From IMG/VR virus record IMGVR_UViG_3300020358_000015, positions 1-30,587 of that record: 30,587 nucleotides of DNA, one strand, 5' to 3'. The position numbers and the translations under genes were made by a program. The notes under the pieces are model-generated. The model searched no databases. It worked only from the letters and a program-made list of their open reading frames with translations, and was not told the DNA's origin. Source of the stretch: a virus (lineage: Duplodnaviria > Caudoviricetes). Below, piece by piece: positions 2,865 to 24,497 of this stretch; within the stretch, counting starts at the first letter, position 1, and every line of letters starts with the position of its first letter.

Positions 2865-5800
2865 TCAGAATTCTAAATTTTTTAATTCATCTTCTAGTTT
2901 TTTTAATTTCCTACCACTAGTACTGTTTTTAGATTTTTTTCTAGCTCTAGATTTTTCAGCTTTTCTTTTTTTAAGCTCTTTTTCTCCATATATTATTTTA
3001 AAGTCTTCATCACTTAACTTTAAATCTTGTTGTTTAGAAGCTTTTATGTCAGACCAATTGTCAGCCATTAAATACCTTCTTATATCCTTATATAGTGGTA
3101 GTGGTACTCCTGTAAACTGACTAGCCTCTAAAGCAGTTCTTAGTGTAAGAAACTGAGCCGCTGCTCTGTCTGCAACTTTTTTATCTTTACTTCCCATTTT
3201 AGCAAGTAAATCACCCATTCTTAATAGACTACTAGCTTGTGGTGCTAAAGGCCCTGCGCCAATTCTTATTGCAGACTCTGCTACACCTTCTTTTTCTAGT
3301 TTTTGTTGATTAATTACACTAAAGATTAATGAATGTTCGTATGGATTATATCCTTTGCCATCTTTGTCTGACCATAAACCTAAAGATTCTCCATATTCCT
3401 CGTTTAATTTTTCAATACCTAAATTTATTGGAATCATAGGAAAATTACCTGAAGTACCTCTGGTTATCAAAGAAACTCCTGCACCTACTAATTGTCTAGT
3501 GCCTAACTCTTCGTAATCTATATCATCTTCATCATCAAGACCTAACACTCCATTAAACATAGAAGCTAGTGCTTTGTACATAACAACGTACATACTCATT
3601 CTAGTGATAACTCCTGCTAATGTAGCACCTCCTTTAATAGCACCCATTTCTCCTTGTCCAACCATAGAGGCAACAGCTTGTCTAGCCGTTACGAATTCAT
3701 TAATAGTAAACCTAGCCATATAAGAATTTATTGACTTATATAATATCACTCTTGCACCATCCTCATCTGAAAGTTGATTTTTTAATACACCACTAAATGG
3801 GTCATTAGATGTTGCAGCTTGAGTAACTTTAGCATCCGCTGCTCTCTTAGCGGCTTGAATAGCATCTGCATATTTAGTCATATACGCTTCGTCATTCTTT
3901 GATATCTTATCTGCGTCCATGTCTTGGCCAGTTTCCTGTTTAAAGACCCTAGCAAAAGTTCCAAAAAACAAAGGTCTTGAAATCATTTTATCAGGAGTAC
4001 TTAATAAATTGTCTGCTATAAACTCTGAACCATCTGCAAACTTTTTACCAAATCTACCTGCATATTTAAGGCTGCTTTTAATATTACTACCACTAGCTCG
4101 TTTACTTCCCTTTTTGTTTCTAACTACACCAGATTGTTCTGATTTAGAACCTCCTAGTATTTCTGAACCCCAATTTTTAGTTACAGTTGTAGACCCTACA
4201 TTTTCTGCAAAAGATAATCCGTTTTGCATTAAAGATAAGTTTGAATATTTTCCTAACCCCAATGCTAATTCTTTAGGAGCTGACATCAATCCAAATGTCA
4301 AGTTACTGCCAAGTTCTGCTACTGCTCTTGGAGCAGATGCTAGAGTACTATAATAACCAACTTTTCTTGCTATATCAAAATACTTACCTCCAATGACATC
4401 TGTACTAAAATTACTAGACAAAACATTTTCAATGGATTCATCATATGCTCTTGACAAAGAAACAGTTGCTTCTATTACTTCTTTTGTAGCATTTTCTTGT
4501 TCAGAAAGTCTGGTTAATTGAGTTAAAGCTTTTCTAGACGTTTGTATTTCATTAGTTAAATAATAATCCATACCTGTCATTCTTAAAGATCTTAATGCTG
4601 TAGCGACAGGATCAAAATCAATTGCTTTTGCTCCTGGAGTTCTGCTTATAGACGATTTAGATTCAGTACTTGTTTTTGCATTTACGTATTCTTTTTGTGA
4701 TATTAATTGTTTGTCTAACTTATCTTTTGTAGCATCAACTTTGTGATGAACATAATTATTTAATAAGTCTAGTTTGTTACCTCTTACAATAGTTGTGGCA
4801 TAAGCTTGCTTGTCACCCAAAGCACCATAAATTTCTTGCATTATACCTATAGCTTTCATTACTTGTGGAGATAAATTTTGTTTCATCTTCTTAGTTGTAA
4901 TGACTCCTCCTTCGCTATTCTTGGCTTTTATATCGAGTAATATATCTATATCAGCTTGAGTATAATTACTTGCTGTTTTAGAATCGTTAAAGTTTTCTAT
5001 AGTCTTGTCTATAAATTCATTTGCTTCTGCAACTCCTTTATTACCTACGTTTGATTCGCTTTCTAAAGCTAATAAATATGTTTGTATTTCAAACCTTCTT
5101 CTTACTGCAGGATTAGTTCCTTCTTTGTAAGTAGGAGCTATTATTTGCTCTACAGCATCAAGCTTGTCAGTCAGTCTTCCTGCCCAGGTTTTAAACTGAC
5201 TGTACTTTGTGGCTATTGGTTCAAAACTATTATTTCTTATAGTGTTGTTTTTATAGTTCCCAAAAGCATTATCTACTGCAGATAAAGGATTAGTCCTCAG
5301 CATCTCTAATGATGTTGTAGAATTCGCTCCTCTACTAACAGCATTTTTTAAACCTGCTTTTAAGGCAGCTTCTGCCCTGCTTTTAACCATAGCTATTTTA
5401 TTTTTAGTAGTTCCATATTTGTCTACTAAAGGACGCATGTCATAAGCCCTACTATTTATTGACTGACCAAGTTTGTTTGCAGCGTGTGTATAATGACCAT
5501 CATTAATGTTTTCAAGACTAACTTCTAATAAATCTAATTGCTTGCCTGTTAAGCCAATTAGGTCGCTGTCTTTAATGTTTTGAAACACTTGAACACCACC
5601 TGCTTCTTTAGTTGTATTGTCAAGACTTTTTAAACTTATACCCTTAGACCTAGATTTTATTTTTGTTATAACGGCCTGTCTATTCTCAGCAAATTTATTA
5701 GCAGATTCTACAAGCTCTTGATTTTCATCAGTCTCTGCTGAGTTAATTTTATCTATAAGCGTTTGTAATGTAAATGAATCTAGTTTATCTAAGTCGTTTT

Positions 5801-8800
5801 CAATAAACTTAGAATCTTCTAATATTAAAGTTTCACCATCTACATCTTCATTAATAATTTTATCTACTATAGTTTTTAAACTTTTAGTTTCTTTAGTTTC
5901 AGTCTCTTCATCTGTATCTTGAATGTTTTCATTATACAAAGAATCAGCCATGTTCTGAGAATCTATTACTAACTGATCATCTAACTTTACATTTTGTTTT
6001 TGCTTAAGAAGATTACTTAAGAAATCATTATAACCATCTATATTTTCACTAGTCAGATTTTTAGTTGGAGTATTTAGTATAGTCCCTAACCTAGATATAA
6101 GGTCTGGATTTAATCCATAGTTTCCTTTATTTAATCTTGTAGTCACTCTATTATTAAGCTTTTCTGCTTTCAAAATTTTTGCTGCGTAATCAGCATCATT
6201 AAATACTTTTTCCGAATACTCTATTAATTCTTGTACAGCTACCTGATTATCAAGATTAACACTATTAACTTTGTTTATAACAGCTTTGGTTTGTGCTGCA
6301 GTAATATTTCCCTTTTTACCTTTAGCATATGTTTTTATCTGTTTATTAAGGTTTTTCCTTTTAGTTTTTAAATCTTGCTTACCTTCTCTATTAGACTTGT
6401 TCCAAGATTTCCAAAATCTTTTACGTTGAGCATTTTCTCCTTCTTGTTTAGCTTTATCAGTTCTAGTGGTACTTTTTATAGATTGTAAAATACCTTTATA
6501 TGTATCAGCTGTTACAGTTTGACTATTTGTTTTAGCAATAGCTTCTACCTCAGCCTTAACCTCAGCTTCATTAGCAGCATATAAATCTATCTGCTCATTA
6601 GAATAATTTGTATCTCCATTAGCAATTTTAGTTGCTAAACGTCTTGTTTTTGATTTATCTTTCGGTAATTGTTTTCGTATTTCAGAAACTCTGTTATCTA
6701 TGGCTTCTTGATTTTCTGAATAAAATTGTTGAGCTTCTTCAGATAACTCTGTAGAAGAATCACTTTCAGCTATTCTATTTGAAAATGACTCAATCTTATT
6801 GTCAAGTTCATTGTTCACACTCATATCTTGCTCTACAGCAGAAGGTTCTGTTAACTGTTCAGCATCTGTCTGCGCAGTCGTGTCGCTAGTTGTATCGGTT
6901 TGCGTTTCACCTTCTTCGACTTTCGTTTCGGTAGTGACTTGCTGAGTGTCTCCTTCTCGAACTTGTTGCAGTCCCACTTCGGAGTCTCCCCCCTCTTCTT
7001 TGCTTGTTGAAGCATCTGGTAACACTTGCTCCTCTGTGCTTGGCTCTTGAATGGCATCCTTTTTTGTTTTAGTTTCACTTTCCTTATCTTTTTCTAGTGC
7101 AGCTTTATTAGCTGTTTCAACAGGAAAAGCTAAGGCTTGCTTTTCTTCCATTGATAACTTATTAAAGTTCTGTACAGCTCTGCTTCTAATTTCGCTGTTA
7201 TTTATTTTATAGTTTTTTTCACCTGCAGCTTCTTTTTCAGAAACTAACTCTTTTCCTGCATCATCCATCAGCTTTTGTTTTGATTTGTTGTTTACAAAAT
7301 CAAAGTTGCTGTTTTTAATTATATTGTTTTTTAAATCCTGAATCTGAACATCAAGATAAGGTGAGAAAACTTCAGAGACTTTTTTCTCTGATTCTAATTG
7401 TTTAATTTTATTTAAGTCACTCATCACCTGTAAAGATGTTTCAGCACTTAAATTTGATGGTAACCCATTAATGGTTTCATTAAATATTTTAACATCACTT
7501 ATTAAGTTATCAGCTTGCTGTTGAGTATAAATACCTCTCTTTACTTGTGAGTCTAAAAGTGATTGTGTTTTTTTTACATTACTAGCTAGTAAAGCTAAAG
7601 ATTTTATTTGGTCAATAGCTCTACCACCTTTTCCGGTCATACTAAAAGACCTAGTTGTATTTGCTTTTAAATCTCCTGCAACAGGCATTAAAATACCTGC
7701 AGTTAAAGATATTATAGAGGTGTTAGCAAAGTCATCTAAACTAATAGTCTCCTTCATTATTTGTTCACCTGCTTGTTCGTTTATGTCTGATCCAATGATA
7801 TAAGCTTGTGTGCCTTGTTGAATATTTTCTTGAAAAAACTCTTTTCCACCTTCAGTTAAATAGACAGGAACATTTCTTATAACTCCATCTAATGTTTTTC
7901 GTAAATAAGACCTAGACGCCTCAATTCCTGCTCCTTGTGCATATCTATTAATTGTATTCTCAACAATTTTTTGCTTTACTTTTGTTCCAAATATCTTATC
8001 CATAGCAACACGCTGCGTAGATATTGGAGCTGTTAATACACCTAATGCATATCCCTGAGTCCCTGCTTCAGAAGCTAATAAATCTGCTTCTTCATTTGAT
8101 AAACCTGCATCTAATGCTGACCTTCTAACCTGTGAGGATAGTGAGCTACCCATTAAAGTACCTTGAGCAATCATAGCTGATGCTGTTGTAGCTTTCATAG
8201 GTATTTTTTCCAACAAAGAAACAACTTGTCTACCTTGCTTATACTTAGATGCAAATGCAATTCCTCTTGCAGTTTGACCTGCAATTCCGACACCTCTAGT
8301 AAGAGCTATCTGAAGTAGCATATCAGATGCTACACCTGCAGTTGTTACTGCTGCCCCTGTGCCACTAAAACTACTTCCATCAACTCCATTTAATTGAACT
8401 TGTTTTCTTATTTCTTTTATTTGCTCAGGCTCTAATATGCTGCTTACTCTTATCTTTAAATCTAAATCATATATTTCTCCGTTGTCATCAATCATATACT
8501 CTCTACCATTTGCAAAAGCGCTTTTACCACTTGCATACGTATATCTAAGCATATCATCTCTGTTAAGTTCTGTTTCAGCTTGATTCATTTGAATTTCATC
8601 ACTAACAGATTCCATGCCTACCCAATCATAAGCCCACTCAGAAAAACTATTTATCCTATCATTTACAGAACGACCTCCCTGAGATCCTGCATCAAGCAAC
8701 CATTGAGTATTTGCACCACCTGCACCACCTTCTAATTCTCTTTGATAATTTTCTTTTGTTTCGGCTTTTTGTTTTTTTATTGCAAATGATAAAGTAGGAA

Positions 8801-10136
8801 ATTCTTCCTCCATATAATTGGAAAGCTCATCTATACCAATAGCAGGTTTTAAATCTATTTTATCTACATCACCGTTTAAAAAAGGATTTTCACCTTCATT
8901 CTTAATTTCGTATTCAAGAACTTGTTTGTTTACATTTTGTAAATCAACTTCAGCTAAATAGTTTTTTAGATAATCATACTTTAATTTATCAGCAGCCAAA
9001 GTTGGATTGTAGTTTCCAGAATAGTCGTAATATCTTCCATCTTCAGATATTGTTTCGTCTTTCAACAACTTAGCATATCTTTCTTTAAATCCGTTTTCTA
9101 TTAGATAACCATTAAATCCAGATATGTCAATTTTATTATCATCACCTGATAGCTTTTTTAAAGTTTGTTGGTTATACATTTCTGCTAAAGCATCATCTTC
9201 AAAACCTGTTGGTTCATAATCTGAGCTTTCAAAAATCTCAAACTCTTCATCAGTATAAGCTCCATCTTCTCTTTGAAATATAGATTGAAGCTTTTCAACA
9301 CTAGCATTAGGGCCTGCAAAATCTATAAGCCTTGCTGTTTCTGCATCAAAGTCTTTTACCTTTTTAATTATAGAATTTGTTTTTTCCTTTTCTTCAGGTG
9401 TATAATTAAAGTTTTTTACATCAGAATATTGGGAATAGTCTTTTTCCTTTTCTTGTTGTAGTTTTAATATATTATCTTCAGTTGACTTAACCGAAACCTC
9501 TTGAAGTTTTTCGATAGATTTTCTACCTCCTTTTAAAGCACTTGTTATATCTGCCTGCTTAATATACCCAATAGCTAATGCTTTTTGAATGTTTGGATCT
9601 GCCTCTATTTTTAACTTTAGTTCTTCATCTATAGATATGTTTTGTTGTCTCATTGCCCTAGCTCTATATGAACCAGGTAATTGAAATCCCTCTAAAGATT
9701 TATCGTTATTTTCTAATAATTTACTTAAATCTTCTTTTAAGAAACTCTCAACATTATCTTCTGGAAGTAAATTTTCTGTGTCTCCTGTTTGGTCTCCAAA
9801 GTTTAATTGAGATTCGTTAATTACACCCTCTTCAACTACTTCGTTTACTTCTAAAGAATCCGAAACACCATCTTGTACTTCTGTTTCGGTAGTAGATTCC
9901 GTAAGAACCTCTTCCCCATCTGAAGGAGTATCGACTTGATTTTTTTTTTCACCGTATCCTACTAATGTAGAAAAAGAATCAATGTCTTTTTTATATCCTT
10001 TAGATTGAACATACTCAAAATTGTCATTTAAAACTTCTTGGTCAGAACCTATTAGTTGTTCAAACTCTTCTATAGATTTACTATAACCTTTTGATGTAGC
10101 TCTATCGTATAAGTCTTGTAATACTTCTTTATCCAT
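2865..10136 (-). CDS. giant internal virion / DNA-ejection protein (2423 aa)
   Basis: Last and largest of three helical proteins after the tail genes, as in podovirus ejection modules; has Gly/Ala-rich hydrophobic segments, acidic linkers and a basic C-terminus. Confidence 0.7.
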   Translation of the reverse strand: MDKEVLQDLYDRATSKGYSKSIEEFEQLIGSDQEVLNDNFEYVQSKGYKKDIDSFSTLVGYGEKKNQVDTPSDGEEVLTESTTETEVQDGVSDSLEVNEVVEEGVINESQLNFGDQTGDTENLLPEDNVESFLKEDLSKLLENNDKSLEGFQLPGSYRARAMRQQNISIDEELKLKIEADPNIQKALAIGYIKQADITSALKGGRKSIEKLQEVSVKSTEDNILKLQQEKEKDYSQYSDVKNFNYTPEEKEKTNSIIKKVKDFDAETARLIDFAGPNASVEKLQSIFQREDGAYTDEEFEIFESSDYEPTGFEDDALAEMYNQQTLKKLSGDDNKIDISGFNGYLIENGFKERYAKLLKDETISEDGRYYDYSGNYNPTLAADKLKYDYLKNYLAEVDLQNVNKQVLEYEIKNEGENPFLNGDVDKIDLKPAIGIDELSNYMEEEFPTLSFAIKKQKAETKENYQRELEGGAGGANTQWLLDAGSQGGRSVNDRINSFSEWAYDWVGMESVSDEIQMNQAETELNRDDMLRYTYASGKSAFANGREYMIDDNGEIYDLDLKIRVSSILEPEQIKEIRKQVQLNGVDGSSFSGTGAAVTTAGVASDMLLQIALTRGVGIAGQTARGIAFASKYKQGRQVVSLLEKIPMKATTASAMIAQGTLMGSSLSSQVRRSALDAGLSNEEADLLASEAGTQGYALGVLTAPISTQRVAMDKIFGTKVKQKIVENTINRYAQGAGIEASRSYLRKTLDGVIRNVPVYLTEGGKEFFQENIQQGTQAYIIGSDINEQAGEQIMKETISLDDFANTSIISLTAGILMPVAGDLKANTTRSFSMTGKGGRAIDQIKSLALLASNVKKTQSLLDSQVKRGIYTQQQADNLISDVKIFNETINGLPSNLSAETSLQVMSDLNKIKQLESEKKVSEVFSPYLDVQIQDLKNNIIKNSNFDFVNNKSKQKLMDDAGKELVSEKEAAGEKNYKINNSEIRSRAVQNFNKLSMEEKQALAFPVETANKAALEKDKESETKTKKDAIQEPSTEEQVLPDASTSKEEGGDSEVGLQQVREGDTQQVTTETKVEEGETQTDTTSDTTAQTDAEQLTEPSAVEQDMSVNNELDNKIESFSNRIAESDSSTELSEEAQQFYSENQEAIDNRVSEIRKQLPKDKSKTRRLATKIANGDTNYSNEQIDLYAANEAEVKAEVEAIAKTNSQTVTADTYKGILQSIKSTTRTDKAKQEGENAQRKRFWKSWNKSNREGKQDLKTKRKNLNKQIKTYAKGKKGNITAAQTKAVINKVNSVNLDNQVAVQELIEYSEKVFNDADYAAKILKAEKLNNRVTTRLNKGNYGLNPDLISRLGTILNTPTKNLTSENIDGYNDFLSNLLKQKQNVKLDDQLVIDSQNMADSLYNENIQDTDEETETKETKSLKTIVDKIINEDVDGETLILEDSKFIENDLDKLDSFTLQTLIDKINSAETDENQELVESANKFAENRQAVITKIKSRSKGISLKSLDNTTKEAGGVQVFQNIKDSDLIGLTGKQLDLLEVSLENINDGHYTHAANKLGQSINSRAYDMRPLVDKYGTTKNKIAMVKSRAEAALKAGLKNAVSRGANSTTSLEMLRTNPLSAVDNAFGNYKNNTIRNNSFEPIATKYSQFKTWAGRLTDKLDAVEQIIAPTYKEGTNPAVRRRFEIQTYLLALESESNVGNKGVAEANEFIDKTIENFNDSKTASNYTQADIDILLDIKAKNSEGGVITTKKMKQNLSPQVMKAIGIMQEIYGALGDKQAYATTIVRGNKLDLLNNYVHHKVDATKDKLDKQLISQKEYVNAKTSTESKSSISRTPGAKAIDFDPVATALRSLRMTGMDYYLTNEIQTSRKALTQLTRLSEQENATKEVIEATVSLSRAYDESIENVLSSNFSTDVIGGKYFDIARKVGYYSTLASAPRAVAELGSNLTFGLMSAPKELALGLGKYSNLSLMQNGLSFAENVGSTTVTKNWGSEILGGSKSEQSGVVRNKKGSKRASGSNIKSSLKYAGRFGKKFADGSEFIADNLLSTPDKMISRPLFFGTFARVFKQETGQDMDADKISKNDEAYMTKYADAIQAAKRAADAKVTQAATSNDPFSGVLKNQLSDEDGARVILYKSINSYMARFTINEFVTARQAVASMVGQGEMGAIKGGATLAGVITRMSMYVVMYKALASMFNGVLGLDDEDDIDYEELGTRQLVGAGVSLITRGTSGNFPMIPINLGIEKLNEEYGESLGLWSDKDGKGYNPYEHSLIFSVINQQKLEKEGVAESAIRIGAGPLAPQASSLLRMGDLLAKMGSKDKKVADRAAAQFLTLRTALEASQFTGVPLPLYKDIRRYLMADNWSDIKASKQQDLKLSDEDFKIIYGEKELKKRKAEKSRARKKSKNSTSGRKLKKLEDELKNLEF
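6851..7057 (-). CDS. nested (overprinted, +1 frame) small basic protein MPFKSQAQRSKCYQMLQQAKKRGETPKWDCNKFEKETLSKSLPKRK... (68 aa)
   Basis: ATG preceded by taaaacaaaaaagg; local GC about 50% versus about 30% in flanks; the N-terminus resembles small stand-alone phage proteins beginning MPFKS-x-x-Q (recognition from memory). Confidence 0.65.
   Translation of the reverse strand: MPFKSQAQRSKCYQMLQQAKKRGETPKWDCNKFEKETLSKSLPKRKSKKVKRKPIQLATRLRRQMLNS
9832..9950 (-). other. candidate programmed -1 frameshift / transcriptional slippage site (G-A10-T) and trans-frame ORF
   Basis: A10 at 9949-9940; the -1 frame has TGA immediately before the run, then 36 open codons with no ATG, ending at TGA 9834-9832. 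Confidence 0.55.
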
Positions 10137-10142
10137 TATGTT

Positions 10143-12104
10143 CTATTTGTTTTCGTAATCGACTCCTCCTGATACTGTACCTGATGGCTTTTCTCCTCCT
10201 GATACTGTACCTGATGGCTTTCCTCCTCTTAAGACTATATCCATATTTTTTTGAAGCCATGTGTGATTTTCACTGCTTGATTGCGCTGGGCTTTTGTAAT
10301 CTACACTATCTACTGTGATTACATATCTGTCATTAGGGCCACTTTCATCTGAATGACTTACTTGTATATTTGAGTCAATATCATATTCTTTTATGGCTTT
10401 TTGGATTATAGTATTTGCTATACCAGTAACCTCATCTTCGTCAGGATTATTTTCTACTGCAGTAGCAAAAACTTCAGCTGCAGTACCTGCTCTTTTTATA
10501 CCATTTTTTTCTGAAACTCCTAAATTAAAAGCACCTAAGCCTCCATACTTTTTTGTTATGCTTTTATATGAAGATACTTTACCTTTTGCTTTTTTATCAG
10601 TACCTTTTAATTTAGATTTATCAAGATATTTTTGAGCTTTTAATTGTAATTTTGCTGCAATTTGCTTACCTACATCTACACCTAGACCTGTTAATGGTAT
10701 AGGAGCCATTCTGTTTCCATCAGGATCTATAAACACTAATATCATATTATCTTTTTTACCTGTAATATCATAACTTGATACAAATTTTGGGTTTTCATCT
10801 ACTAAAGCGTTTAAACTTGATACGTCACCTGTAGCTGCAAGGTCGACAAGGTCTACTGTTGATTGATAGTCTTCCGATTTATCTCCTGATTCATTAGGCC
10901 TAAATGTAGTAGTCTTGTCTCTTCCTGTTATCTTTCTTTGTAATCCTGAGTATATCCCTGATTTAAATATTCTTATAGAAGCTATCTTTGCTTCATCTGT
11001 TTCTTCACCCATAAATAGAGTACTCATAGGGTCTAATGTAGCCGTTACGTATTTATTATATTTCCCTTGCAACATCTCTCCAGTACTAGGGTCTATGTAC
11101 TCGTAAGAAATCTGTTCTTTTAAATCAACACCATCAGCTTTTAATCCTGCAACCTCGTTAGGCATAACAGGTATTTGTTCCTTACCGGGAGGCATATTAT
11201 CCATTAAAATACTCATTCTTTGTTCTACAGTAGCTGTCGCTGCCCCTGTTCCTGCATTAATGAGTCTTTCTATATTTCGGTTATTTCTAGCGTCATCAAC
11301 AACTATTCCTGTATACCCAGCTGAAGTTTTTATCACTTCAAAAGCTTTACTTAAAGCTGTATCCTTATCCAATGCTTCGTTTATACTATCGTTCATATAA
11401 ACTCTAGGTGATTTTTGATTCTTACCTTTTAAAATAGTTGAAGCACCAATTCCTGACATAGTAGGGTCTATAATTGGATTACCGTCGTTATCTAAATCTA
11501 ATTCTCTAGTGTTTGTCTTTGTGTTTATTTTTGTTTTATAAAGATTCATATTAAGACTTCCATCCTCACTACTTAAAATCTTATATAAATTAGGATTACC
11601 TAAAGTAGTTTGAAACTTTTGTATAGCTGACTGAAAAGCTCCAGCTGTTGGTTTTACATAGTTTCCATTTGCATCTGTGTATCCCTGTGCTTCTTTTAAT
11701 GACTGCTGAAAGTTAGCATCATAGTCTTTTAGGTATGAAGAAAGGGTGTCGTAACTTGTACTTGCATTTTGCCTAAATATAAGATTGTCTGTAGGGCTTT
11801 GCATTCCTTTTTCAACCATCTTTACATTATCATACAATCTTTCTTGAGTGCTTCTTAAAGCTTCTAAAATAGCAGCGTCTACAGTTTTATTACCTGTCAT
11901 TCGCTCGCTTGCTAACTTTTTCGAGTCTTGATAAGCTTTAGCTGTATCTGTTTTTAGCTTTATCTCAGCGTCATCTATACCTTTTTTCCAAGAGGCAACA
12001 TCTTTCATCCCCTTGCTTATAGCGGATAGAGTAGAAGTTGGGTCACTTACACCTGTGAAACCTTTATCTAATGCAATTCTAGTAGCGTCTAATTTATTAC
12101 CCAT
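10143..12104 (-). CDS. internal virion / ejection protein (653 aa)
   Basis: Position between the 323-aa and 2423-aa proteins; helical N-terminal region. Confidence 0.6.
   Translation of the reverse strand: MGNKLDATRIALDKGFTGVSDPTSTLSAISKGMKDVASWKKGIDDAEIKLKTDTAKAYQDSKKLASERMTGNKTVDAAILEALRSTQERLYDNVKMVEKGMQSPTDNLIFRQNASTSYDTLSSYLKDYDANFQQSLKEAQGYTDANGNYVKPTAGAFQSAIQKFQTTLGNPNLYKILSSEDGSLNMNLYKTKINTKTNTRELDLDNDGNPIIDPTMSGIGASTILKGKNQKSPRVYMNDSINEALDKDTALSKAFEVIKTSAGYTGIVVDDARNNRNIERLINAGTGAATATVEQRMSILMDNMPPGKEQIPVMPNEVAGLKADGVDLKEQISYEYIDPSTGEMLQGKYNKYVTATLDPMSTLFMGEETDEAKIASIRIFKSGIYSGLQRKITGRDKTTTFRPNESGDKSEDYQSTVDLVDLAATGDVSSLNALVDENPKFVSSYDITGKKDNMILVFIDPDGNRMAPIPLTGLGVDVGKQIAAKLQLKAQKYLDKSKLKGTDKKAKGKVSSYKSITKKYGGLGAFNLGVSEKNGIKRAGTAAEVFATAVENNPDEDEVTGIANTIIQKAIKEYDIDSNIQVSHSDESGPNDRYVITVDSVDYKSPAQSSSENHTWLQKNMDIVLRGGKPSGTVSGGEKPSGTVSGGVDYENK
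10163..10228. repeat. 30-bp in-frame tandem repeat (about 2.2 copies) encoding KPSGTVSGG(E)
   Basis: ctcctcctgatactgtacctgatggcttt(t/c) twice, followed by ctcctc. Confidence 0.95.
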
Positions 12105-12116
12105 CAGTATTTAATA

Positions 12117-13088
12117 TTATTCATTAAAATCTATATAATTCCCAGATTTAAACTTATTTAATACCTTATTAAAATCGTATCCGGCTTTTTCTTCTTCTTC
12201 TTCTTTCTTTTTTCCTTGCTCCTCAAAAAATCTATAGAACATTGCCGCCATTGATGTATCTACAGGTTGACTAGTAACTCCTGATAAATTCGTAATACTT
12301 TCCCCTACACTTTCATTATTATTAGTAACATTGATTTCAGGCGAAGGAACACCACTTGATACATTGCTTCTTCCGCTAATATCAATAGATTTAATATCTC
12401 CTCTATTAAATTGTCTTATTTCTTCTCCTGTATATTTAGATATTCGAGACCTAGCCTCATCAATACTAATACCTTCTGAAGTAGATAGTTTTTCAGCTGC
12501 TTTACTTCCAGCTTTACCTTTTAATCCTCCTACAACCGAAACACCTGTTTGCAATGCACTTACTCCTGCGTCAATAAATGCTCCTGTAGATTGTCCTTTT
12601 AATTTATCTGCTTGAGCTGATAATGCATCTGCCTTTAATCCTGCTGACGCTGCTCTATCATCTTCATATGCTGCTATTTCTGAAGCAGACATTTCCCCTG
12701 CCTTAGCACGAGCCATATCTATATCTATTTTTTGTTTAGCAAATTTGTCAGATATTTCTCCTAATGTAGCGTCTTGAACTTGCTTTATCTTGCCTGCTCC
12801 TGCAGCGACACCTCTTTGGTCTCCTTCTTGGATAGATTCTAATAACTGAGCACCAAATGCATTTCCACCTCTAAGCTGTCGGTCATAAACATCTGTGGTA
12901 GCCCTAACAGCATCGTAAAAGTTTTGCTCTAATCTAGCTACAGATTGTTTTTCTAAATTTTCTTGTTCCAACCTAAGCCTACCTGATTCCCTAGCAGCTG
13001 TTTTTGCCGCATCACCAGCTAATGCTCCTTTTAATGCCGAGCCACCTATTGATACTGTAGCTGCTGCTATTGTTGTAAATGCTGCCAT
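12117..13088 (-). CDS. internal virion / ejection protein (323 aa, T7 gp14 / P22 gp7-like position)
   Basis: Gly/Ala-rich hydrophobic N-terminus (MAAFTTIAAATVSIGGSALKG) followed by a coiled-coil region; first of the ejection trio. Confidence 0.65.
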   Translation of the reverse strand: MAAFTTIAAATVSIGGSALKGALAGDAAKTAARESGRLRLEQENLEKQSVARLEQNFYDAVRATTDVYDRQLRGGNAFGAQLLESIQEGDQRGVAAGAGKIKQVQDATLGEISDKFAKQKIDIDMARAKAGEMSASEIAAYEDDRAASAGLKADALSAQADKLKGQSTGAFIDAGVSALQTGVSVVGGLKGKAGSKAAEKLSTSEGISIDEARSRISKYTGEEIRQFNRGDIKSIDISGRSNVSSGVPSPEINVTNNNESVGESITNLSGVTSQPVDTSMAAMFYRFFEEQGKKKEEEEEKAGYDFNKVLNKFKSGNYIDFNE

Positions 13089-13089
13089 A

Positions 13090-13500
13090 TTATAATTTTT
13101 TTATCATTTCTTTATTGTATGTACCAGATTCAATATATCCATTATTCTCATAATGTTGAGTTAGTGATTTAGATTTCAAAAGAGCATATGAATATTTGCA
13201 TCCAGATAATTTTAATGTGTTTGTTAAAACACTAATTAAGTATATTAATGATTGCTCTCTTTTTATCTTATCCTTATATTCAAAATTAGATATCACCCAA
13301 TCACACCAACCAACCTTTGAGTTTGTTATGTAAATGTATCCTGCACAAACAGGTGTTTCTTTATCGTATACTATAAAACCACCTTCGCTATTCTCTGGTA
13401 AAAAATCTTTTGGAGGTGATGTCCATCTCCAATCTTTCCACCATTTTGTCAATATCGAATCGTAATCTGTTGAATTTAATTTTCTTACGTTAAATTTCAT
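13090..13500 (-). CDS. GNAT-fold acetyltransferase-like protein (T7 gp13-like position)
   Basis: VRKL...DY ... GGFIVY....PVCAGYIY ... L..HYENNGY resembles the GNAT pattern; lies between tail and internal virion genes. Confidence 0.6.
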   Translation of the reverse strand: MKFNVRKLNSTDYDSILTKWWKDWRWTSPPKDFLPENSEGGFIVYDKETPVCAGYIYITNSKVGWCDWVISNFEYKDKIKREQSLIYLISVLTNTLKLSGCKYSYALLKSKSLTQHYENNGYIESGTYNKEMIKKL

Positions 13501-23405: not shown

Positions 23406-24497
23406 TTATCTATTTTTACTTCTTATTCTTAAACCTTTTCCATTATCTTCTCCAACAGCTCTAGCTTTAAATCCTGTATCGCCAATTACTTGTGGAGTTT
23501 TTCTAACATTCATATTAATGTTTTTACTTTTTTTAGAAATATCCCCCACACCATCTGACTTTCCTTGCTCATAAAAATATTGAGCAAAACGTTCAGGATC
23601 CATTGCTGCACTTAGAGCTTTATGCCAACCTTTTGCATCAGAAATTAATCCGTCATCACCTACATATTTTCCTATGAAGTTTTCTAGATTCATTTGTTTT
23701 GCTTTCATTTCATTTGCATCCCCATAAGAATAACCAATTTTTTTGTCTCCAACTTCGAACTCAAAACCTTTGAATTCTGAATTAAAAACCTCATTAGTTT
23801 TCTTTGAAAAATACTCATTTTTTTTATGATTAGCTTCTTTAACAGTCTTAGATTCTTGAATAAACTTTTTATATGCATCAAGTTCCTCTTGGATTTCGTT
23901 TGAAACAGCCTTCCCACTTGACTCAAGAGGAATGCTATATTTTTCTTTAAAATCATTAAGATACTTTTTTGCCTTAGAAAGCTCTCTTTTTTTAGCTATA
24001 TTTTTCTTTTTAATTTCAGATTCATCATCTATATCTTCATCATATGAAAATTTTGATTCAACTAAATAATGAATATCTTCATTATCTAAATCCTCTTCTG
24101 TTAAAGAATAATATTCTGCTAACACTTGGTCATCATTTAAATCATCGTAACTTTTATTTGCTTTTACGAAATCATTAAAACCACGGCCAGTTTCTTTTTT
24201 AAAATTTAAATATTTAGAAACATCTTCTGGTAAATCATTATTTACTTCTCTTTGAGAAAATAATTCATCAATAGATGATATTTCTTTATTATATCTGTTT
24301 TTAATATATGAAAGAACGTCTTCATCTTTTATGTCTTCAGGTTGATTAGATTTTGGTCCTTCCTCAGCTTTTGGTTCTTCCTCAGCTTTTGGTTGATCAT
24401 TATTTAATTTCTCCTCATGTTTATCTAAAAGATCTTTTTCTACCTCTTGAACTGATTTTTGTTCTAAAGTACTTACTTCTTTAACTTTAAATTCCAT
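23406..24497 (-). CDS. capsid scaffolding protein (363 aa)
   Basis: Highly acidic/charged and helical; sits between portal and capsid; FYEQGK motif near the C-terminus. Confidence 0.65.
   Translation of the reverse strand: MEFKVKEVSTLEQKSVQEVEKDLLDKHEEKLNNDQPKAEEEPKAEEGPKSNQPEDIKDEDVLSYIKNRYNKEISSIDELFSQREVNNDLPEDVSKYLNFKKETGRGFNDFVKANKSYDDLNDDQVLAEYYSLTEEDLDNEDIHYLVESKFSYDEDIDDESEIKKKNIAKKRELSKAKKYLNDFKEKYSIPLESSGKAVSNEIQEELDAYKKFIQESKTVKEANHKKNEYFSKKTNEVFNSEFKGFEFEVGDKKIGYSYGDANEMKAKQMNLENFIGKYVGDDGLISDAKGWHKALSAAMDPERFAQYFYEQGKSDGVGDISKKSKNINMNVRKTPQVIGDTGFKARAVGEDNGKGLRIRSKNR
24351..24394. repeat. 18-bp in-frame tandem repeat (PKAEEE/G)
   Basis: ttttggt(c/t)cttcctcagc x2 plus ttttggtt. 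Confidence 0.9.

Follow-up and report, generated by a model that had tools for sequence, protein, structure and literature searches.

Inside a giant gene of a podophage genome, a short open reading frame runs on the same strand, shifted by one base, and the locus raises the question of whether this smaller frame is a gene in its own right and, if so, what its product does and which of the two frames is the older. The window, meaning the whole stretch of 30,587 nucleotides that was analysed, is the structural block of a podophage of the Bacteroidota type, encoding terminase, portal, a GroES-like protein, virion proteins and a crAss-like muzzle domain.

The giant gene and the frame nested within it

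The giant gene (positions 2865–10136, minus strand) encodes a protein of 2423 aa that belongs to phrog_32588, a family with no function assigned in PHROG, and that has no match among cultured phages at E 1e-5. By its position and size, the product is likely an internal virion or ejection protein; the first-pass annotation had named it an ejection protein, a name that goes beyond the annotation of the Elemovirus counterpart, which reads 'structural protein'. The small frame (6851–7057, minus strand) extends from an ATG at 7057 to a TAA at 6853–6851, lies in the +1 frame relative to the ORF 10136–2865, and overlaps an acidic linker of the giant protein at approximately residues 1027–1096. Its 68-aa peptide is very basic (21 K/R, 4 D/E, pI 10.9), in contrast to the overlapped host stretch, where 70 aa include 19 D/E and 3 K/R. 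Residues 1–44 are the conserved core, consisting of an N-terminal Met-Pro-Phe-Lys-Ser, a helix at 6–22, a second helix at 30–36 and Leu-Pro at 42–43, with a basic tail on the C-terminal side. Two cysteines, encoded on the minus strand at 7022–7024 (Cys12) and, within a W-D-C motif, at 6968–6970 (Cys30), are found together; among 101 aligned members, mostly from one clade, 42 have both, 59 neither and none only one, and we infer that they may form a disulfide or metal pair.

In composition, too, the overlap is distinct. GC amounts to 60/120 at 6901–7020, as against 0.23–0.40 in most other 120-nt windows of 5500–8500 and 0.46 in one near 8260; host GC3 is 0.39 in the overlap versus 0.18 elsewhere; and GTG or GTC account for 4/5 Val codons within the overlap versus 14/117 outside it. 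The first-pass annotation had described a 68-aa, very basic, same-strand +1 ORF from the ATG at 7057, together with the raised GC, the altered choice of Val codons and leader adenines at -3, -6, -12 and -13, and all of these, coordinates included, were reproduced. The nested stretch is also the longest open +1 stretch of the giant gene (80 codons; runner-up, 45), yet an equally long one appears in 5.8% of 1000 codon shuffles, and when the host linker was resampled 5000 times with synonymous codons, 9.4% of the results had no stop over 68 codons. Since the open frame alone is only modestly unusual, and since acidic genes of this kind often contain K-rich +1 ORFs by chance, an open frame in a single genome is weak evidence, and the case rests on comparison, where the strong evidence lies. 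The exact protein is missing from a collection of 15 billion proteins.

An internal start site

The ATG is preceded by a leader (7058–7071, minus strand) that is A-rich and unstructured, carries the four adenines just mentioned and is without a Shine-Dalgarno sequence. In Flavobacterium johnsoniae, adenines at exactly these positions, along with low structure, favour initiation, according to PMC6847099. The complete set of adenines precedes the nested ATG and just 1/154 of the other internal ATGs in the giant gene, and, across loci, it precedes 17/34 giant-nested and 17/23 scaffold-nested copies versus 66/4480 (1.5%) and 19/522 (3.6%) of the background internal ATGs in giant and scaffold genes, respectively. 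The nested start region is, moreover, less structured than approximately 98% of those background ATGs. By a broader, 20-position matrix, the ATG of the window ranks only 27/156, the median over 33 giants being in the top 5%. Met is present in 51/51 distinct starts, most of them found with Met-containing patterns but with loci chosen by the host gene in agreement, and the host residue at that point varies (D32/N15/Y4); Met, Pro and Gln8 are invariant over these starts while the overlapping host residues change. An internal translation start at ATG 7057 is thus predicted from the leader and its conservation; an in-frame GTG at 7078 was considered as a start further upstream and was rejected as unconserved.

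A promoter search upstream of the nested start gave no excess (4 sites versus 2.8 expected), and the Bacteroidetes -7 motif had no match on the minus strand in 7057–13281, so that there is no sign of a separate transcript. The same promoter and terminator scan returned two terminator-like matches versus 0.5 expected, and a hairpin of 7 bp with T-rich tails on both strands lies within the giant gene at 7372–7391, roughly 300 nt upstream of the nested start. In RNA runs, at most 0.08 of the sequence words were present, and contigs matched only short pieces, several of them at 7013–7075; these matches show conservation of the DNA, not expression.

Selection on the two frames

Among 13 distinct ungapped relatives, pN/pS is 0.29 in the small frame (codon-column bootstrap 0.20–0.41) versus 1.56 in the host frame within the overlap (1.03–2.56), the pairwise values being non-independent and many loci near-duplicates. 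In flanking controls (two stretches of 150 codons, 5 relatives), the host frame has pN/pS values of 0.08–0.12 and the +1 frame contains 17–22 stops. By these ratios, it is the small frame and not that of the host that is under purifying selection over the overlap, and the relation is reversed in the flanks, which is the frame-specific signal that the first-pass annotation had suggested looking for. Even where two giants share only approximately 22% identity elsewhere, or cannot be aligned, the overlap stands out as conserved, and conservation of the ATG and of the open frame among relatives is upheld, including at loci picked by the host gene alone. The host frame is maintained as well, Phe3 being TTC in 51/56 nested copies versus 5/70 Phe codons of the window's giant gene, whereas the -1 frame contains stops in 16/17 stand-alone copies. 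The host's D/N/Y-A-I/V-Q motif, a 'DAIQ' signature that the earlier reading took for the trace of an embedded gene, is indeed the -1 shadow of the small gene. Counts of stop avoidance (0/164, 0/96) and of host stops (0/416, 0/229) are true by construction and were left unused as evidence.

A separate, likely slip site in the giant gene

The giant gene contains a further feature, an A10 run at 9940–9949 (minus strand), in codon 63, after which the -1 frame is open to a stop at 9834–9832. A9–A10 runs lie in the first 150 codons of 44/50 giant genes, versus 3 runs in 95,203 later codons, and Elemovirus also has the feature. Behind the run, the -1 frame encodes a conserved basic-aromatic tail with a pN/pS of 0.44 versus 0.96 for the host frame (12 sequences). 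By this pattern, the run is likely a slip site that would give a short product of approximately 101 aa, and it is separate from the nested gene. One low-depth contig, from a run that is probably DNA, has an extra base in the A10 run and was not counted as evidence.

Relatives and the sites that they occupy

A peptide-based scan of viral sequences confirmed 104 relatives in 44/64 parts scanned, of which 80 loci with 60 distinct peptides were kept. In 47 of them the small gene is nested in a giant gene, in 17 it is nested in a gene of approximately 400 aa, and in 16 it stands alone. The approximately 400-aa host is the homologue of a scaffold-like gene that, in the window, follows the portal gene and precedes a gene for a 473-aa structural protein (23406–24497, minus strand); the window's own version is without a nested copy, its homologue in relatives being the alternative host. 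The scaffold-like and giant proteins share no similarity (best E 1.2). Searches were also done with host proteins, to avoid circularity. With the giant C-terminus, six loci were retrieved, four with an intact copy and two (L085/L086) with the start half deleted; with the scaffold protein, the best 80 of 594 loci held 11 intact nested ORFs and one truncated, all in the +1 frame, and several scaffold-nested copies had variant N-termini outside the search patterns. The family also reaches culture, with 68 matching records of the Flavobacterium phage Elemovirus; in the one record examined, the gene for a 3667-aa 'structural protein' contains a nested ORF of 42 aa (at 3582 of MT497074) that has no annotation.

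Searches of whole records matched 40/49, with 38 matched once and two having an extra start fragment of 13–25 residues; these records were mostly chosen for having a match, several of the nine without one are fragments, and, given that two divergent copies (G045, G048) were missed, the reading of one copy per record is limited by sensitivity. At five loci a stand-alone copy begins 1–2 nt after the giant's stop, and a nested copy was absent from all four whole giants checked that have such a copy behind them. Records with an empty scaffold gene often have the small gene in the giant or just after it (G005, G036, G037, G039, G040, G042, G046). From these arrangements, the small gene appears to hold one of three sites per record: the giant gene, the scaffold-like gene or the position 1–2 nt past the giant stop.

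The gene can evidently also be lost or broken. G032 (81% complete) and G035 (89%) yielded no copy; the copies in L017 and L163 stop at 32 and 18 aa, respectively; and in the start-less remnant of L085 the Cys30 codon has turned into a stop. G035 has, 2 nt after its giant stop and hence at the site used by stand-alone copies, a different, very basic ORF of 83 aa (L214:9248–9499), which has no Pfam or NCBIfam match and is possibly a functional substitute. In L006 and L018, an insertion of 225 codons left a broken start fragment plus an intact downstream copy. The second copy of the nested-gene start lies 675 nt upstream of the intact one, with an inserted domain between them (L006:3326, L018:3326), which suggests that the giant protein may exchange domains by recombination at the conserved cassette. 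Elsewhere, at L085:5136 and L087:5064, the giant gene has an inserted domain near its N-terminus in which a 73-aa, ATG-led +1 ORF occurs; this ORF may be due to chance.

The stand-alone family

The existence of stand-alone homologues, another expectation of the first-pass annotation, is confirmed by the 16/80 loci above and by cultured phages. A single-sequence protein search with the peptide found nothing, but profile searches did find a family, with 2635 representatives at E<=1e-3 and, in a further search, 7969 of 8000 scored candidates; none of these representatives has an informative name. Stand-alone members occur in the Streptomyces phage FlowerPower (gp48, before holin), in the cyanophages P-RSP2 and S-CBS2, in phages 023Pt and C75C1, and on three Acidobacteria contigs. 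In P-RSP2, S-CBS2 and C75C1, members of 34–40 aa (L223:6001, L224:6001, L226:6001) are present but not listed in the GenBank feature tables, and at one of the three cellular loci (L175:2955–4958) genes for DUF72, LigD polymerase and DUF421 lie upstream of the Acidobacteria copy. Among phages, the gene directly follows the portal gene in L050 and L054 and lies within portal-capsid blocks in L064, L066 and phage 023Pt; outside head modules, it is beside a DNA polymerase gene in L056 and beside ligase-like and RNA-polymerase-like genes in L077.

In the top 150 profile matches, Pro comes after Met or the start residue in 141 and after xKEA/xKTA within longer proteins in eight, which look related, the profile itself favouring Met-Pro; this placement suggests that the N-terminal Pro is free and argues against a fusion made by frameshifting. 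The fused versions are long proteins rich in K-x-A motifs (48/61 within residues 39–62), these motifs being presumably prohead-protease sites, and the long members may be protease-processed head proteins of large phages. Several of the long matches with the module in K-x-A-rich proteins (P0029, P0032, P0087 and others) also carry DUF5661.

The peptide had no significant match in Pfam, PHROGs or NCBIfam, weak matches to Choline_sulf_C and SHOCT falling below their cut-offs. An AlphaFold2 model has three helices (pLDDT 88, pTM 0.54), with no match in the PDB by sequence or by Foldseek, and a viral structure library gave leads only, all at E >0.001, the best being a 78-aa Harvfovirus protein (E 5.7e-3, 40% identity). 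No account of the small gene was found in the openly licensed literature, and one phage paper containing the motif proved irrelevant; the stand-alone family may be listed in supplements of small-protein catalogues, e.g. that of PMC11364881.

Coding status, function and alternative explanations

The nested ORF is, with high confidence, predicted to be a real protein-coding gene, and it is modestly favoured that this conserved +1 gene, using its own ATG, encodes a small, basic, helical protein that is packed in the head and binds DNA there; the head-packaged, DNA-binding role, taken separately, is an evenly balanced call. The peptide is small, strongly basic and encoded late or in a head module, as would suit an internal DNA-binding protein, with L056 and L077 as exceptions; for DNA binding, searches of the PDB (by sequence and by Foldseek), Pfam, PHROGs and NCBIfam gave no structural or named-family match in support. 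In the mechanism proposed, ribosomes would enter the late mRNA internally at the A-rich, unstructured leader and start at ATG 7057, giving an 8-kDa basic peptide from which Met would be removed to leave a free N-terminal Pro. A two-helix core, probably braced by Cys12–Cys30, and the K/R tail would then neutralize or organize packaged DNA. The Lys/Gln-rich codons, read one base back, would become a stop-free, Glu/Ser/Thr-rich spacer that disordered linkers tolerate, and it may be because of this tolerated spacer that the gene can sit inside other genes and move between host linkers in register.

That the frame is a non-coding shadow, i.e. a host motif or DNA signal leaving +1 open by chance, would fit the single-genome chance of 6–9%, the commonness of K-rich +1 ORFs in these genes and the compositional bias of phase-1 overlaps described in PMC2542354; however, selection reverses over exactly the nested stretch, the ORF has stand-alone homologues in which the -1 frame is closed, and the remnant decays after loss of its start, so that this explanation is already largely refuted and hardly credible. 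Only slightly less improbable is a +1 frameshift at the A-rich run, by which the giant protein would be truncated and given a basic tail. Such a run does lie just upstream, and in the window no stop interrupts the small frame over the 12 codons that precede the ATG, but in relatives the upstream open stretch is often only 2–7 codons, with no fixed slip motif, the ATG never changes although the host codon does, and the family's Pro is nearly always at a free N-terminus. A conserved slip site that makes an internal ATG dispensable, the mark of programmed frameshifting, is lacking at the nested gene.

For a translated small gene, the other possibilities concern the target of its product. It might be a head-assembly cofactor or chaperone that binds not DNA but the portal, the scaffold or the acidic ejection protein, in which case nesting would couple its expression to that of its partner; the gene adjoins portal or scaffold genes in L050, L054, L064 and L066, and the two head-module proteins whose genes enclose it are both acidic, opposite in charge to the peptide. 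The swaps between two non-homologous hosts and the homologues in unrelated phage groups and on Acidobacteria contigs, with no shared partner apparent, argue against this explanation, which is considered unlikely. A still lower probability is given to an unpackaged product that acts late in the cell, e.g. on ribosomes, RNA or the nucleoid. A universal target would account for the wide range, and there are cellular homologues, one of them near LigD and DUF421 genes, as well as copies beside replication or transcription genes; against it stand the phage contexts examined, most of which are late or structural, and the fused versions in K-x-A-rich long proteins, presumably cut by prohead protease. 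A DNA-binding protein of the head is kept as the working proposal.

Which frame is older

A midpoint-rooted tree, built from 79 peptides over 53 columns and with rough support, mixes the states of the three sites, requiring 11 changes versus a minimum of 2, and strongly supported branches force at least four changes for 'giant' and at least three for 'scaffold'. Scaffold-nested and giant-nested copies are up to 80% identical, and the stand-alone group behind the giant is placed among giant-nested copies. As set out in PMC3494269, a gene overprinted de novo is expected to be limited to a subclade of the carriers of its host gene; the small gene is not so limited, since Streptomyces phages, cyanobacterial phages and Acidobacteria all have homologues, and by this criterion its wider distribution marks it as the ancestral frame on the stretch. 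The same paper adds that a gene born de novo can, with age, likewise come to be the more constrained of the two frames, and that its overlap may be lost. Overall, the small gene is probably older than the linker that it overlaps, and the first-pass description of it as 'overprinted' probably had the order backwards, given that the small gene both has the wider distribution and carries the selection. More tentatively, and at a little short of an even chance, it may be an old, widespread, portable, single-copy dual-frame cassette with a harmless acidic -1 spacer, which has repeatedly entered and left unrelated structural genes of Bacteroidota phages and encodes a DNA-binding core protein of many phage groups and some bacteria.

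Comparison with known systems

Phage T4 provides a functional analogue, in that its internal proteins, released by prohead protease, are small, very basic and encoded in the late region. The small gene product resembles such internal or core proteins in being small, very basic and late, and would by analogy be packaged with DNA; it differs in having no sequence or fold match to them, and the comparison concerns how the proteins work. A lead from another direction is DUF3008 (PF11450), the ESM Atlas feature neighbours at 0.87–0.89 being small viral proteins in whose clusters 10% and 37% of members carry this domain; as an identity it was rejected, 0/101 aligned members matching at E<=0.5.

Among nested genes, Rz1 of phage lambda is a lipoprotein partner of the product of its one fixed host gene, an inner-membrane spanin of a lysis cassette, and separated versions of Rz/Rz1 occur in other phages. 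The present gene is like Rz1 in being fully embedded in a gene of a tailed dsDNA phage, on the same strand and in a shifted frame, and it has the hallmarks of a same-strand nested overlap, lying wholly inside the host ORF under purifying selection with a conserved start and context. It differs in encoding a basic peptide and in moving between two unrelated hosts and a free site; nor was there a hydrophobic signal stretch or a spanin match in PHROGs, Pfam or NCBIfam. Rz/Rz1 are named as nested frames in PMC3494269, and gene E within D of phiX174 is a further likeness, with its shifted-frame dual coding and skewed codon use, as described in PMC8227390 and PMC3494269. In overlaps of the E type, the nested frame is young and narrowly distributed, whereas here the nested frame is wider in distribution and more constrained, and it is the host linker that appears new.

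The gene catalogues of an abundant aquatic phage group thus miss a nested gene whose family, of no known function, runs to thousands of members, and the nested copy can be tested in culture with Elemovirus and its host, Flavobacterium sp. BAL314. Two unrelated hosts together with a free form offer a natural series in which the origin and the dissolution of overlaps can be followed. Most nested phage genes that are known are young frames over an old gene, each with one fixed host, while in the present case the nested gene appears to be the older; the nesting of phage genes is itself known, and what is new is an old gene that shifts between unrelated host genes and a free position.
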